Shown here: positions 2,752 through 36,005 of the stretch, one piece after another
How positions within the stretch are numbered: position 1 is the first letter of the stretch
Layout of the letters: each line of letters begins with the position of its first letter
Position numbers and translations under genes: made by a program
The notes under the pieces: generated by a model
The model's database searches: none
What the model saw: the letters and a program-made list of their open reading frames with translations, nothing else
Told to the model about the DNA's origin: nothing
Sequence record: NC_049813.1
Origin: Escherichia phage vB_EcoS-12210I
Length of the DNA stretch: 44,219 nucleotides
Reading direction: 5' to 3' (one strand)

Positions 2752-3081
2752 ATGAGAATGACAAGCACAAGAAAAAAGGTAATTGATTGCATACTACACT
2801 GCACTGAAGGATGCGATAGGTACAGCCCTACCGCGGATGATGTATCTAGATTGACAGGAATCCAAAGGGCTAACGCAAGGAGGACCTTGCTTGAACTTGA
2901 ATCTTATGGGGTTGTTGAAAGGGTTGAAGTTGCCTCTTACTACTCAGTCTCAAGGCGTATTGACATAAAAAGAAAATGTACAGGATGGAATGTTACAGGC
3001 AAAAAACCAGAGCCAATAGAGAGATTGAAGCTGTCTCAGGATGATGCTGATAAATTGATTAATAAAATTTTTGGCGGTTAA
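2752..3081 (+). CDS. Putative winged-helix DNA-binding regulator, 109 aa
   Basis: GGAGGA RBS; HTH-like segment SPTADDVSRLTGIQRANARRTLLELESYGVV. Confidence 0.5.
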   Translation: MRMTSTRKKVIDCILHCTEGCDRYSPTADDVSRLTGIQRANARRTLLELESYGVVERVEVASYYSVSRRIDIKRKCTGWNVTGKKPEPIERLKLSQDDADKLINKIFGG

Positions 3082-3730
3082 AATGAATATCAAGCCATTT
3101 AAAGATACCAACGTTGCCATGATGAGCACCAAAGAGATCGCGGGGTTAACTGGTAAAGAACATAATAAGGTAATTCGTGATGCCAAGGAAATGATCAATG
3201 ATTTGATACATTATAACAACTCCTCATACTTAAGGAGTGAGGATTATCAAGTACTTACAGATAATTTAGGCTATACATCAGAGATTTTACTTAACAAGGA
3301 ACTTACAGAAACGCTAATAACTGGCTACAGCGTCATTCTTCGTCACAGAGTTATCCGTCGACTTCATGAGCTTGAGGCGTTAGTTAAAAAACAAGCAGAA
3401 GTAATCAGCCAGATGGTAAGCATTAATGAACTTAAAGAGGTTCGAATGATGCTTGGTGTGGCTAATGCGCAGAATGCACACCTGAGCCAGCGCATTGTTG
3501 CAGAGCAAAGAATAAATGAGATCTTACTCATGGATAAGAGTACCGATGAAAAACTAGACATGCTGGCTTGTGAGGCTCGCCAGTGTTGGGCTAGTCGTTC
3601 TGATGAGATGGAGGAAAGATTTAAGTATGAAGCCCAATGCTTCGCCCTTAAAGAAAAGAATGATGCGCTGACTGGATTGATTGAGAATAATCTCGGAATT
3701 GACATTAAGCTGCTGCTGGAAAAGAAATAG
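3071..3730 (+). CDS. Rha-family phage regulatory protein (putative)
   Basis: N-terminal MSTKEIAGLTGKEHNKVIRDAKEM resembles the Rha/pRha motif; coiled-coil-like C-terminus. Confidence 0.5.
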   Translation: MAVKMNIKPFKDTNVAMMSTKEIAGLTGKEHNKVIRDAKEMINDLIHYNNSSYLRSEDYQVLTDNLGYTSEILLNKELTETLITGYSVILRHRVIRRLHELEALVKKQAEVISQMVSINELKEVRMMLGVANAQNAHLSQRIVAEQRINEILLMDKSTDEKLDMLACEARQCWASRSDEMEERFKYEAQCFALKEKNDALTGLIENNLGIDIKLLLEKK

Positions 3731-28160: not shown

Positions 28161-28583
28161 TCATTCGTATACTTTGAAGTTAGGCTCCCAGCTCTCCTCG
28201 AGGATTGCCGGATGAACATAAATCTTATCTCCAATGAGGCAAGCTAGATTCATACTCTCTAGGGCTGGGATAAACTCATCCTTAATGCGCGCCATTAGCC
28301 TGTCATTGCCACCCTTAATTCTTTTCGCCCTGCGAGCGCCTTCGTATAAAGACCTGATACCAAGCACGCCCTTGCCGTTCTTTGCCATTTTCCTAATAAT
28401 ATTAATCAGAACGCCAAGCGCTTCATCTTTGTATACTTCTGACGCATCGGGATGACCCCAGAAGCCTTGCGTTTGTCGATACCCGTTAGCATTGATTGCA
28501 ACCAGTAGCGGTGGCAGCCCATCTTGGATAGCAATATTCATAATCTGCTCGTCCGTCAGTTTCTCTTCATCGAAATTAAACAT
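28161..28583 (-). CDS. Truncated paralogue of the 31069-32652 NTPase (N-terminal and C-terminal segments only, no P-loop core)
   Basis: First about 45 aa and last about 85 aa align with the ends of the 527-aa protein. Confidence 0.55.
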   Translation of the reverse strand: MFNFDEEKLTDEQIMNIAIQDGLPPLLVAINANGYRQTQGFWGHPDASEVYKDEALGVLINIIRKMAKNGKGVLGIRSLYEGARRAKRIKGGNDRLMARIKDEFIPALESMNLACLIGDKIYVHPAILEESWEPNFKVYE

Positions 28584-31068: not shown

Positions 31069-32652
31069 ATGTTCGATTTCAACGAAGATAAACTATCTGT
31101 TGAACAGGTTATGGCAATTGCTGCCGCAGAAAACCTCCCGCCCCTGCGCGTCGCCATTAATGCTAATGGCTATCGCCAGTCTCAATCATTCTGGAAAGCA
31201 CCAGTCGAGATTGATGCAGCTAATGACAAGTATCCAGTAATCTCACTAGGTAATGACATTGATGTTGTTGGTAAGCTGTCAGCTAATATTGCCCGTTCTG
31301 TTCAGTTCCCTGAGTCGTCAGCTTACATGCACTTCCTGGGGTGTATTTCCGCTGCAATGCTGGGTCGATTTACTGTTGAGTATCACGGAACGCAGCAACC
31401 GACTTCGCTGTACGTCGTAACGAGTCAGCCACCATCGACGGGTAAATCAGCAATCAACTCACTTTCAATTGCTCCAATGATTGCTGAGACTGAGCGACTA
31501 AATAAAGTGAGAAAGCGTGAGCGCAAGAAAATTATGGCAAAACTATCTGAATTATCCAAAGAGATGAAGCAGGAAAAATCTCCGTCAGAGATGGCTTCAC
31601 TTTTTGAGGAGAAAGAGGAACTAGAGGAAAAACTCGAGAAACTATGTGATATCGTTTTCCCTGTGTCAGATACCACACCGGAAGGACTTGCGCGAATAAA
31701 CAACCGCCAGGGCAGCTTTGCTGTAATATCAGATGAAGCAACCAGCGTCAACTCACTGCTTGGTATGACCTATGGTGATGGTTCGAAGAAAACGAACAGC
31801 GAGCTTGTGCTGAAGGCCTGGGATGCTGGTAACGTGTCAATTGCGCGTGCTAACGCAGAAAACAATATGAGCTTTGTTGCTATGGGTTGCATCTCTGTAA
31901 TTGCACAGGATGAAACAATCAATGCGATCATGAACGCTGGCGCGCGTGGTATCGGTGTATCTGAACGTTTCCTGCTTGTACGTGAAAAGTCATTCCTGGG
32001 CGAGCGTGTGTTTGTTGATGAAAATGGTGAGTCAACTTACGAACCGATAGATGGTGAGCTTAAGGCTAACTACTTCCGTCTGGTTCATGAAATCATGAAT
32101 GAACAAGAAGTTAAGTTGACAGTTAGTAATTCAGCAATGAAATATCTCAACCGCGCGCGTCAGGAGATGGAACCGCACCTTGCTGACGGCGGGAAGTATT
32201 CACACACAATGTTGCGAGGCGCGTTGGGTAAGTTCGATAAGCAGGCAATCAGGATTGCGGCGGTTCTTCACACTGTGCGTAACTGGTTCAACCCAAATGG
32301 CGGTAGCCCTCAGAAGTCGAGAGAAATTGAGCTTGATACAATGCAGGAAGCTGTAATTATGTTCCAGGAACTTAGCAAGACTTATTTGTCATCCGCTAAC
32401 GCCGCGGGTCACGCTGGCGACAATGCAGAGATGAATAAGCTGATTGATATCCTGATTAAGCAAGGCAAAAACGGGAAAGGAGTAGTAGGTATTCGTTCGC
32501 TATATGAAGCGGCTCGCAAGGTTAAGCCGTTCGAGGCTCAAGCGGGAGTAATGACGAAGATTAAAGACCACTTGCTGCCAATGCTTGATGAGAAAAACTA
32601 CACGTGCCTGATTGGTGATAAAGTTTACATTAATCCACGACTATTGGGGTGA
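31069..32652 (+). CDS. P-loop NTPase, putative replication-associated protein, 527 aa
   Basis: Walker A-like QPPSTGKS and Walker B-like AVISDEA; termini shared with the 140-aa paralogue. Confidence 0.55.
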   Translation: MFDFNEDKLSVEQVMAIAAAENLPPLRVAINANGYRQSQSFWKAPVEIDAANDKYPVISLGNDIDVVGKLSANIARSVQFPESSAYMHFLGCISAAMLGRFTVEYHGTQQPTSLYVVTSQPPSTGKSAINSLSIAPMIAETERLNKVRKRERKKIMAKLSELSKEMKQEKSPSEMASLFEEKEELEEKLEKLCDIVFPVSDTTPEGLARINNRQGSFAVISDEATSVNSLLGMTYGDGSKKTNSELVLKAWDAGNVSIARANAENNMSFVAMGCISVIAQDETINAIMNAGARGIGVSERFLLVREKSFLGERVFVDENGESTYEPIDGELKANYFRLVHEIMNEQEVKLTVSNSAMKYLNRARQEMEPHLADGGKYSHTMLRGALGKFDKQAIRIAAVLHTVRNWFNPNGGSPQKSREIELDTMQEAVIMFQELSKTYLSSANAAGHAGDNAEMNKLIDILIKQGKNGKGVVGIRSLYEAARKVKPFEAQAGVMTKIKDHLLPMLDEKNYTCLIGDKVYINPRLLG

Positions 32653-34182: not shown

Positions 34183-34398
34183 TTATTTGCTCCTTATATT
34201 GATTGCTGTTTTCAAGTCTCCAGATTCAAGCGCCCGCCTGATAGCTTGACTATCCTTATACTTCCAGTAAGCACCCCAGGCTCCGAAAATGATTAGAGCG
34301 ATAAGGCTGATTATTGCTATAGTCATTTGACCAGTTGCCGCACCAGTAAACGCAGCACCGCCAGTTGATGCTGTAGCGGCGTTAATTACTTCTCTCAT
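34183..34398 (-). CDS. Holin (putative pinholin), about 71 aa
   Basis: Hydrophobic transmembrane segments; AAAGGTGGA RBS before ATG 34398; immediately upstream of the endolysin. Confidence 0.6.
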   Translation of the reverse strand: MREVINAATASTGGAAFTGAATGQMTIAIISLIALIIFGAWGAYWKYKDSQAIRRALESGDLKTAINIRSK

Positions 34399-34476
34399 GT
34401 GATCCACCTTTATGTATTTGTCAATGCTTAAGTTAATAAAAGAATGATACATTAGCACCGCTCGGAAAAGAAGCAT

Positions 34477-34500
34477 AAAAAAAGGGAGCCAAAGGCCCCC
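34477..34500 (-). terminator. Hairpin with U-run upstream of holin
   Basis: GGGGGCC-TTT-GGCTCCC (one G-U) followed by T7 on the minus strand. Confidence 0.5.
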
Positions 34501-34527
34501 CGCTTGTAAAGCTATGTTTTTTCTGCG

Positions 34528-34704
34528 CTAGTCAGCGATAATAAATTCAACTAACGAACCATCAATCGGCGCTAAAATGTGAGTCATGTCATCGCCGTAA
34601 ATCTTGTAATATCCATCACCCTGGTACTCTGCATTGTACGGCTGGTTAACTGTAAATGGCAGTGTCTTTGAGTTGTTCTTGGTGCAATAAATCACTTTAG
34701 TCAT
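34528..34704 (-). CDS. Hypothetical small protein, 58 aa
   Basis: AAGGAAG RBS downstream of a promoter-like module; weak similarity to the 30026 product (K.L.PF...YNAE). Confidence 0.45.
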   Translation of the reverse strand: MTKVIYCTKNNSKTLPFTVNQPYNAEYQGDGYYKIYGDDMTHILAPIDGSLVEFIIAD

Positions 34705-34745: not shown

Positions 34746-34790
34746 ATTATGCCGCATTTCTACGGCATTACTTAGGCAAAAAGTGCTATT
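34746..34790 (-). promoter_or_regulatory. Promoter-like module copy n: element 34772-34790, CATAAT 34746-34751
   Basis: Element and hexamer with 20-bp spacer; start region CATCGAAACGA. Confidence 0.55.
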
Positions 34791-35919
34791 AACTAAACAT
34801 TTCGGGACGGCAAGTGAATCGACCAATCTCTCCGAATTTAGGGCTGTAGATGATTACCGACGCCTGGCGATAAGAGCGATAACCACCGTTGGCACTGTAC
34901 GCATCCTTGCAACCAAGCTGACCATGAGACTCATCGATACCTAAGTTACCCTCTGTAATCGTTTGATGGTGGTAATGGCCACTATGAGTGTAAACATACT
35001 CAGACTCACCAAAAGCCTTACGATGGTCACGAGCCAGTGTTGATAGTCTGGTATCAGGCTTTTTGAGTTCATGTCCATGACAGTAACCAAGCAGCGTCTT
35101 TCCAAACTGCGTTACGTGAAGCGCTGCAGGAGATGCGTCAACATTAACTCGAGGCTCATCCATATAGAACGCCGCCATTGCAGCACGAAGCCAAATCATA
35201 CCTGAGAGGTCGTGGTTTCCAGGGATAATCTGAACCTCAATCTCAGCGTGCTTATCAAGCATCCGGCTAATTGCTCTGCGGGTTGCTCGTACTGCTACGT
35301 AAACCAATTTGTGATAACGGCTATCTTGGTCAAGAATATGACGACTCGTTGGAGTTACCGCTTCCATTCCGTCAGAGTGAAGGAAGTCACCACCAATCAG
35401 CAATACAGCCTTCTTTGAGTTAGGAGCCTTTGCAACCGCGTAATCAAAGTAGCTATTAAGAATGCGCTCTGCAATTTCAGTGCTGTAGTTCTCACCACAC
35501 TCGGCATGGTGAGCCATTGCGCCAATGTGTAAGTCGAATACGGGGTACAGGCTTAAGGTATCCTCAAATGATGACTTACTGAGCGGCTTTGGTTTCTCGC
35601 GTGGCAACTCATCAGTTAGGGCCTGAATTGCCTGAAGCATCATTTCTTCTTGCTTCTCTTTGTCGATGTCAGATTTAACCCACTGTTGCTTAATCTCACC
35701 GTCGGCACCAATTAAGCTAGACACACCTTTGACAGCGTAACCTTGAGGAATTAGGTTGCTAACATCACGGCCATGCCCCTCACCTTGCTTAGCTAATTTA
35801 CTACGACGCAATTCAACGTTGCGAATGTTCATTCCGTACTTCTCTGCGATTGCCTTGTTTGTCATGCCATTAGCCAGCTCTTCGCGCAGTTCTTCGTTGG
35901 TAATTTTTGCAGTTGCCAT
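34789..35919 (-). CDS. Calcineurin-like metallophosphoesterase with N-terminal HTH domain
   Basis: Motifs DLH, GDFLHSDG, GNHD, GHxH; N-terminal HTH-like MTNKAIAEKYGMNIRNV. Confidence 0.65.
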   Translation of the reverse strand: MATAKITNEELREELANGMTNKAIAEKYGMNIRNVELRRSKLAKQGEGHGRDVSNLIPQGYAVKGVSSLIGADGEIKQQWVKSDIDKEKQEEMMLQAIQALTDELPREKPKPLSKSSFEDTLSLYPVFDLHIGAMAHHAECGENYSTEIAERILNSYFDYAVAKAPNSKKAVLLIGGDFLHSDGMEAVTPTSRHILDQDSRYHKLVYVAVRATRRAISRMLDKHAEIEVQIIPGNHDLSGMIWLRAAMAAFYMDEPRVNVDASPAALHVTQFGKTLLGYCHGHELKKPDTRLSTLARDHRKAFGESEYVYTHSGHYHHQTITEGNLGIDESHGQLGCKDAYSANGGYRSYRQASVIIYSPKFGEIGRFTCRPEMFS

Positions 35920-35930
35920 TTATAAGTTCC

Positions 35931-36005
35931 TTAATTCATTACGATAAAGTATAAGATAGTAAAGCTAAATAGTGGGACTAATGCTACTAGTATTAGGATC
36001 TTCAT
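35931..36005 (-). CDS. Small hydrophobic peptide, 24 aa
   Basis: ATGA overlap with upstream stop; MKILILVALVPLFSFTILYFIVMN. Confidence 0.3.
   Translation of the reverse strand: MKILILVALVPLFSFTILYFIVMN

Follow-up and report, generated by a model that had tools for sequence, protein, structure and literature searches.

Escherichia phage vB_EcoS-12210I (sequence record NC_049813.1) is a T1-like coliphage (Drexlerviridae; Braunvirinae; Veterinaerplatzvirus), and its complete genome of 44219 bp is the window analyzed here. On the minus strand, at positions 34789-35919, it carries a gene whose product joins an N-terminal helix-turn-helix (HTH) domain to a calcineurin-like metallophosphoesterase core. 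We favor, tentatively and with slightly less than even confidence, the view that this protein is a stand-alone, HTH-tethered, metal-dependent (Mn) DNA nuclease, which acts in host-DNA breakdown and nucleotide salvage or else in the processing of replication intermediates. A phosphoesterase targeted to DNA was among the possibilities raised by an earlier sequence-only reading of this stretch, and it is the best reading of the protein because there are two real domains, a complete and conserved catalytic site, and an HTH fold; its DNA substrate, its metal, and its biological function are inferred.

The gene and the elements of its product lie at the following positions:

34789..35919, minus strand: coding sequence of the HTH-phosphoesterase, stop codon included, with an ATG start; 376 amino acids (aa), match to phrog_704
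35927..35932, minus strand: ribosome-binding site AAGGAA, 7 nucleotides (nt) ahead of the ATG, as read from the sequence
35770..35919, minus strand: three-helix HTH, residues 1-50 (helices 8-16, 21-27, and 32-44), isoelectric point 9.3
35584..35757, minus strand: beta-hairpin (61-70, 76-85), helix (87-102), and ELPR motif, residues 55-112; family-specific
34792..35562, minus strand: compact calcineurin-like metallophosphoesterase core, residues 120-376
35527..35535, minus strand: motif I, D129-L-H131, invariant in relatives
35368..35391, minus strand: motif II, G177-D-F-L-H-S-D-G184, an Mre11-style GDxxHS that aligns to GDLFHSS of P. furiosus Mre11
35308..35355, minus strand: loop between motifs II and III, residues 189-204, TPTSRHILDQDSRYHK; family-specific, with the highest conservation in the protein
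35209..35220, minus strand: motif III, G234-N-H-D237, from the sequence and the alignment of relatives
35077..35079, minus strand: motif IV histidine H281, within CHGH 280-283, from the sequence and the alignment of relatives
34966..34980, minus strand: motif V, G314-H-Y-H-H318, from the sequence and the alignment of relatives

The limits that the sequence-only reading had given for the open reading frame (ORF) are exact, and the phosphoesterase motifs that it listed, DLH, GDFLHSDG, GNHD, and GHxH, are found at residues 129-131, 177-184, 234-237, and 314-318, respectively. All five motifs of the calcineurin-like superfamily are present in the order D-x-H / G-D / G-N-H-[DE] / H / G-H-x-H. With 59 non-redundant relatives aligned (27-97% identity), residues D129, H131, G177, D178, H181, G234, N235, H236, H281, G314, H315, and H317 are invariant in 59/59 sequences. 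Because the metal-binding residues do not vary across these relatives, the motifs are not chance matches, and the predicted catalytic site is intact. The complete active site and the strong purifying selection on it therefore identify the protein as an enzyme.

The core adopts the beta-sandwich phosphoesterase fold and is probably a metal-dependent phosphoester hydrolase. Pfam family PF00149 (Metallophos) scores 20.1 bits on the target protein, narrowly under the gathering cut-off of 21.5, and reaches E < 0.01 in only 5 of the 59 relatives, which marks the core as a divergent branch outside Pfam coverage. A match to phrog_284, named “exonuclease”, was also obtained (E 2.6e-17). Between motifs II and III, the loop peculiar to this family has T189, D197, D199, R201, and K204 invariant in the alignment, and identity between the T1-like and alphaproteobacterial groups amounts to 63% for this loop and 41% for the core. 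The predicted local distance difference test (pLDDT) value from AlphaFold2 (AF2) is below 50 at residues 185-191, overlapping the N-terminal end of the loop.

The N-terminal ~120 residues comprise two parts, an HTH followed by a beta-hairpin and a helix. What had been described from sequence alone as an HTH-like segment is confirmed as a three-helix HTH fold, which superposes on LuxR/FixJ (GerE) and resolvase-type domains at 1.3-2 Å over 42-46 residues. The target itself stays below the Pfam threshold for GerE (E 0.044 with the whole protein and 0.007 with the N-terminus alone; 13.9-16.4 bits vs a cut-off of 23.5), and its N-terminus weakly matches GerE, FixJ, UhpA, and TtrR; its relatives match Pfam HTH families, including HTH_1 (28/59), HTH_50 (13/59, best E 3.7e-7), HTH_23, HTH_29, and GerE. 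The LuxR/FixJ HTH is C-terminal in response regulators, whereas that of the target is N-terminal on an enzyme. In the hairpin module, G65, S67, W80, and K82 are invariant, and structural comparison returned no match for this module. Among ten N-termini without the family HTH, a scan gave weak HTH-like matches in 4 only. In some family members, another N-terminal module stands in place of the HTH: inspection by eye alone, on which no argument here is based, suggests a Cys4 zinc ribbon in P0408 and a ParB-like DGHNR segment in P0412, and neither has a significant Pfam match.

The fusion had been thought unusual, but it is the standard architecture of a large family. The target matches phrog_704 (“DNA repair exonuclease”) over its full length (E 1.6e-147; residues 4-375, profile positions 2-389 of 390), a name that is a prediction and not a function established by experiment. 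Searches with tblastn found relatives in 2048 phage records, including T1 (62.6% identity, annotated “hypothetical”), Klebsiella Webervirus (~60%), Jerseyvirus (~45%), Dhillonvirus (~42%), phages of Vibrio and Rhodobacter (33-36%), and more distant phages of Campylobacter and Flavobacterium. The target gene is 100% identical in ~40 “Escherichia phage vB_EcoS-...” isolates, including vB_EcoS-12397V; in MK907227, the same coding sequence is QDJ98017.1, labeled “hypothetical protein”. An exhaustive HMMER search over 1.8 billion cluster representatives (clusters at 50% identity) yielded 4723 clusters at E <= 1e-3 and 1014 at E <= 1e-30, mostly of 375-420 aa. In the best 149 of the 4723 representatives, the core is present in 149/149, the hairpin module in 140/149, and the same HTH in 117/149. 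Assemblies of proteobacterial genomes contain 119 further copies, and several of the contigs that carry them measure hundreds of kilobases or more; these copies presumably lie within prophages. Within Drexlerviridae, the gene persists in 508 of 522 genomes (PMC13164509). Database labels range over “DNA repair exonuclease”, “phosphoesterase”, “proof-reading exonuclease”, “transcriptional regulator”, and “hypothetical”. A direct sequence search of the PDB returned no match, a profile search there gave only HTH and Mre11 matches below significance, and the family is without a solved structure.

The closest folds to the target core are Mre11 and SbcD. The order of motifs is the same, and their details are similar (DLHIG; GDFLHSD, with GDLFHSS in Mre11; GNHD); in P. 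furiosus Mre11, GDLFHSS, EGNHD, and GHIH line up with target motifs II, III, and V. Unlike these proteins, the target lacks a capping domain, ends 58 residues after motif V, and has a spacing between motifs III and IV that is about half of that in Mre11. In place of the capping domain and partner of Mre11, it has the N-terminal HTH and hairpin, and no Rad50/SbcC partner was found in the phage or beside its relatives. A true Mre11/SbcD protein is ruled out by the missing capping domain, the missing partner, and the lack of a significant profile match; the NCBIfam SbcD model likewise gave no match. The small subunit DP1 of PolD and the eukaryotic B-subunit phosphodiesterase contain an OB domain, which is absent from the target, and DP1 scores lower than Mre11 as a match. 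T1-like phages are without a polymerase gene (PMC11447400).

Two other stand-alone phage enzymes offer functional precedents. The T5 protein A1, a predicted metallophosphatase restricted to Demerecviridae, is necessary and sufficient in vivo for host DNA degradation and acts beside a separate DNA-binding protein, A2 (bioRxiv 10.64898/2026.04.02.716235). Like the target, A1 is a stand-alone phage metallophosphoesterase without a Rad50 partner and is linked to DNA; in T5, however, the DNA-binding protein is separate, whereas in the target the DNA-binding domain is fused, and A1 is 556 aa long and matches phrog_1745 only. Homology of A1 to the target beyond the superfamily motifs was not detected (hhalign probability 9% over 19 columns), nor was similarity of A2 to the target N-terminus (probability 0.9%). 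Around motif III, A1 (locus L087, 1706-3376) reads SNHDLALSRWLD against GNHDLSGMIWLR at target residues 227-245, with a shared NHDLxxSxWL that is unusually specific; W243 in this string is invariant in the phrog_704 family. For Gp48, a metallophosphoesterase of mycobacteriophage A10ZJ24, DNase activity has been shown in vitro, as have degradation of the host genome in vivo and a role in counter-defence (PMC12287305). The cluster A mycobacteriophage enzymes (Gp48; D29 gp66; phrog_547) are stand-alone proteins with the five motifs, like the target, but they are ~200 aa long, have motif I at the N-terminus, and contain neither HTH nor hairpin; homology to D29 gp66 and cluster A beyond the superfamily motifs was likewise not detected (hhalign probability 2.7%, BLASTP E 0.83). 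Given no detectable kinship with T5 A1 or the cluster A enzymes, the family forms a third lineage of stand-alone phage metallophosphoesterases, which is set apart by its fused HTH and hairpin module and is otherwise nothing categorically new.

In the window, the target is the last large gene of a minus-strand helicase operon, which runs from the helicase (39528-37534) through a VRR-NUC-like gene (37537-37118) and four small genes to the target and a 58-aa protein. The unit ends at one further feature:

34483..34501, minus strand: strong terminator-like hairpin with an 8-bp stem and 6 G-C pairs, then a T run; closes the unit from helicase to phosphoesterase and SH3

Beyond this hairpin lie the holin, a signal-arrest-release (SAR) endolysin, and the spanin. 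The 58-aa ORF (34528-34704, minus strand; phrog_4788) corresponds to the stand-alone SH3/DUF7244 protein for which a role as auxiliary lysis factor in Drexlerviridae has recently been suggested (PMC13164509). As the hairpin separates it from the holin, the SH3 gene is grouped with the phosphoesterase operon and not with the lysis genes. Other genes of the phage specify a RecE-like exonuclease VIII, SSB, a primase, a second helicase, and the structural proteins. PHROG scans that covered the neighbors and most other larger ORFs of the window (30 in total) gave no Rad50/SbcC-type ATPase. GATC occurs 60 times in the 44219 bp vs ~173 expected, and there is no Dam methylase gene between the VRR-NUC-like gene and the phosphoesterase, where T1 has one (locus L002, 4203-4916).

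Several observations concern other genes of the window. The 140-aa ORF at 28161-28583 (minus strand) and the 527-aa helicase at 31069-32652 (plus strand) are paralogous over ~90 residues at the C-terminus of the helicase; both match phrog_7327, and the 140-aa ORF also matches phrog_2373 (profile positions 438-514). The holin ORF (34183-34476, minus strand), as delimited mechanically, spans 97 aa, whereas its alignment to the holin PHROG begins at residue 27 and the annotated product in GenBank relatives is 71 aa long. Translation probably begins at an internal ATG near 34398. An anti-repressor (Ant)-like gene lies at 3071-3730 (plus strand; phrog_8235, E 2.5e-78), although the phage family is virulent.

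Gene neighborhoods were compared by clustering the ORFs of 84 loci that carry a homolog, with antisense shadow-ORF clusters discarded. Neither a universal neighbor gene nor an ATPase cluster was found among these loci. Endolysins are the commonest neighbors (Phage_lysozyme in 25/84 loci, GH108 in 9/84); a small membrane protein and a deoxynucleoside monophosphate (dNMP) kinase each occur in 15/84, HNH homing endonucleases are also common, and a 287-aa cluster without a Pfam match, for which endolysin is only a guess, occurs in 12/84. The links to endolysin and dNMP kinase are partial and phylogenetically non-independent. The Jerseyvirus homolog belongs to an antisense cassette of three genes that separates the major tail gene from the tail-chaperone gene, and in Salmonella phage SETP7 (locus L003, 4759-6358) the cassette has an “immunity to superinfection” gene alongside it. 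SU10-type adaptor phages carry the homolog co-oriented in the tail module, between tail chaperone and tail-tip genes (e.g. locus L088, 7730-9191); in RcMrWorf it is placed after the lysis genes, and in one further phage it lies between primase and terminase, adjoining a gene similar to deoxyguanosine triphosphate (dGTP) diphosphohydrolase. With its varying position and no universal neighbor, the gene therefore behaves as a self-contained entity for which no phage-encoded partner is required. Within Drexlerviridae, the order exonuclease-holin-endolysin-spanin is held in 508/522 genomes, dNMP kinase and polynucleotide kinase often follow the gene directly, and these two kinases are what most frequently comes next where the SH3 gene is missing (PMC13164509).

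How such an enzyme might work can be outlined from these features. A binuclear-metal (probably Mn2+) phosphodiesterase would cut DNA, its core acting like the nuclease domain of Mre11/SbcD, and the N-terminal HTH would tether it to duplex DNA, replacing the Rad50/SbcC ATPase and the capping domain. The geometry of the substrate site probably depends on the beta-hairpin and helix and on the conserved loop that follows motif II. In the T1-like phage, expression of the enzyme from the helicase/VRR-NUC operon would precede that of the lysis genes. Its most likely role would be the breakdown of the host chromosome, which would feed nucleotide salvage and shut the host down; trimming of ends or branches of phage replication or recombination intermediates would come second. 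The nuclease reading is supported by the Mre11-type active site and the HTH, by the DNase precedents T5 A1 and Gp48, by the host degradation by T1 and TLS, and by the adjacency of dNMP and polynucleotide kinases. In infections by T1 and TLS, the host genome is degraded and its nucleotides are recycled; in a 2024 re-annotation the responsible gene was still unassigned (PMC11447400), and the target is a sensible candidate for it. As cited in later literature, genetic work of 1981 (Roberts & Drexler; Christensen et al.) had defined host-chromosome degradation by T1. The wider proposition that the phrog_704 family is the enzyme of this degradation in T1-like phages, and that such Rad50-independent nucleases would then be a general device of thousands of siphophages and prophages for host-DNA destruction or counter-defence, we regard as doubtful.

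Several points weigh against the assignment as an HTH-tethered nuclease. The match of the family profile to Mre11/SbcD in the PDB is not significant (E 0.5-2.4), and our literature search found no functional, biochemical, or genetic study of the phrog_704 family. The HTH diverges fastest of all segments, and T1-like and alphaproteobacterial sequences share 14% identity in it vs 41% in the core; such divergence beside a conserved core fits a lineage-tuned targeting module on a conserved catalytic engine, but a fused HTH can be an autoregulator instead of a targeting device. The linkage to dNMP kinase comes mostly from one related prophage group, and the inconsistent genomic position means that early expression cannot be generalized across phages. 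Finally, such a nuclease would have to spare the phage's own DNA, and this phage has no Dam gene.

Other functions for the protein were weighed against the same evidence. It could be a phosphodiesterase of small molecules (cyclic mono-, di-, or oligonucleotides or other nucleotide signals) with an anti-defence or metabolic role, in which the HTH would serve as an autorepressor or operator-binding module. The D-x-H / GD / GNHD / H / GHxH pattern is common to class III cyclic nucleoside monophosphate (cNMP) phosphodiesterases, the gene resembles a mobile accessory gene in its variable positions and frequent proximity to HNH homing genes, and fusion of an HTH to an anti-defence protein is a known design, as in AcrIIA1. 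However, the known signal-degrading phage enzymes Acb1 and Apyc1 are not known to carry DNA-binding domains, and the near-universal presence in Drexlerviridae (508/522) is unlike the patchy occurrence of anti-defence genes. The search for defence relatives gave no match in PADLOC and only sub-threshold scores in NCBIfam (PdeM 18 vs 150 bits, DS9_1 13 vs 420), without a match to any signaling-related family. An autoregulatory operator was not supported either, since the gene lies inside an operon and its 82-nt upstream spacer contains no operator-like inverted repeat and no promoter match. The suggestion in the sequence-only reading of a phosphatase or regulator that acts on signaling nucleotides thus gained no positive support, the motifs being of Mre11 type, and we consider a small-molecule substrate improbable. 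It also appears quite unlikely that the protein is an end-healing 2',3'-cyclic phosphodiesterase/3'-phosphatase that, like the calcineurin-type domain of bacterial Pnkp, acts together with polynucleotide kinase to repair the damage done by host nucleases to RNA or DNA ends. In favor of this, the mycobacteriophage D29 protein gp66, a phage metallophosphoesterase, is reportedly a 2',3'-cyclic nucleotide phosphodiesterase, but the target shows no kinship with gp66 beyond the superfamily motifs. Calcineurin-like domains have been proposed to heal ends in jumbo phages (PMC7824862), and polynucleotide kinase and dNMP kinase are the commonest next genes in the Drexlerviridae that lack the SH3 gene (PMC13164509); yet neither a polynucleotide kinase nor a ligase adjoins the gene in the window phage, and the HTH points to duplex DNA and not to tRNA.

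A role in gene regulation, either as an HTH transcription factor or as a phosphatase directed at RNA polymerase or another protein that controls late or lysis genes, is highly improbable. In phage lambda, Q and the nin-region phosphatase are encoded just upstream of the lysis genes, and the linkage of the target to the lysis cassette is strikingly stable in Drexlerviridae, with endolysins as the commonest neighbors also in the 84 distant loci. The HTH is similar to LuxR and sigma region 4 domains, and one GenBank record names a homolog “transcriptional regulator”. The lysis linkage may, however, reflect inherited module order only, and in the window the terminator-like hairpin intervenes between the SH3 ORF and the holin. 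Moreover, conservation is complete at the catalytic residues and lowest in the HTH. PPP enzymes carry the signature GDxVDRG and GNHE. A PPP-type Ser/Thr phosphatase such as lambda NinI was rejected accordingly, as GDxHG / GDxVDRG / GNHE is not found in the target, which has GDFLHSDG and GNHD instead.

The phrog_704 proteins are among the most widespread unexplained enzymes of the siphophages of coliphage, Klebsiella, Salmonella, and Vibrio groups, which include many therapy candidates, and they also occur in proteobacterial prophages. Should the family prove not to be a nuclease, the present annotation in thousands of genomes would be misleading. If the target is a self-targeting nuclease, it would explain the destruction of the host chromosome by T1-like phages and would bear on transduction frequency and hence on the safety of phage therapy. 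The family would then represent a third independent lineage of stand-alone phage metallophosphoesterase DNases, beside T5 A1 and Gp48. The target is thus an abundant enzyme, mis-annotated or un-annotated, with a testable tie to an old question of T1 biology.

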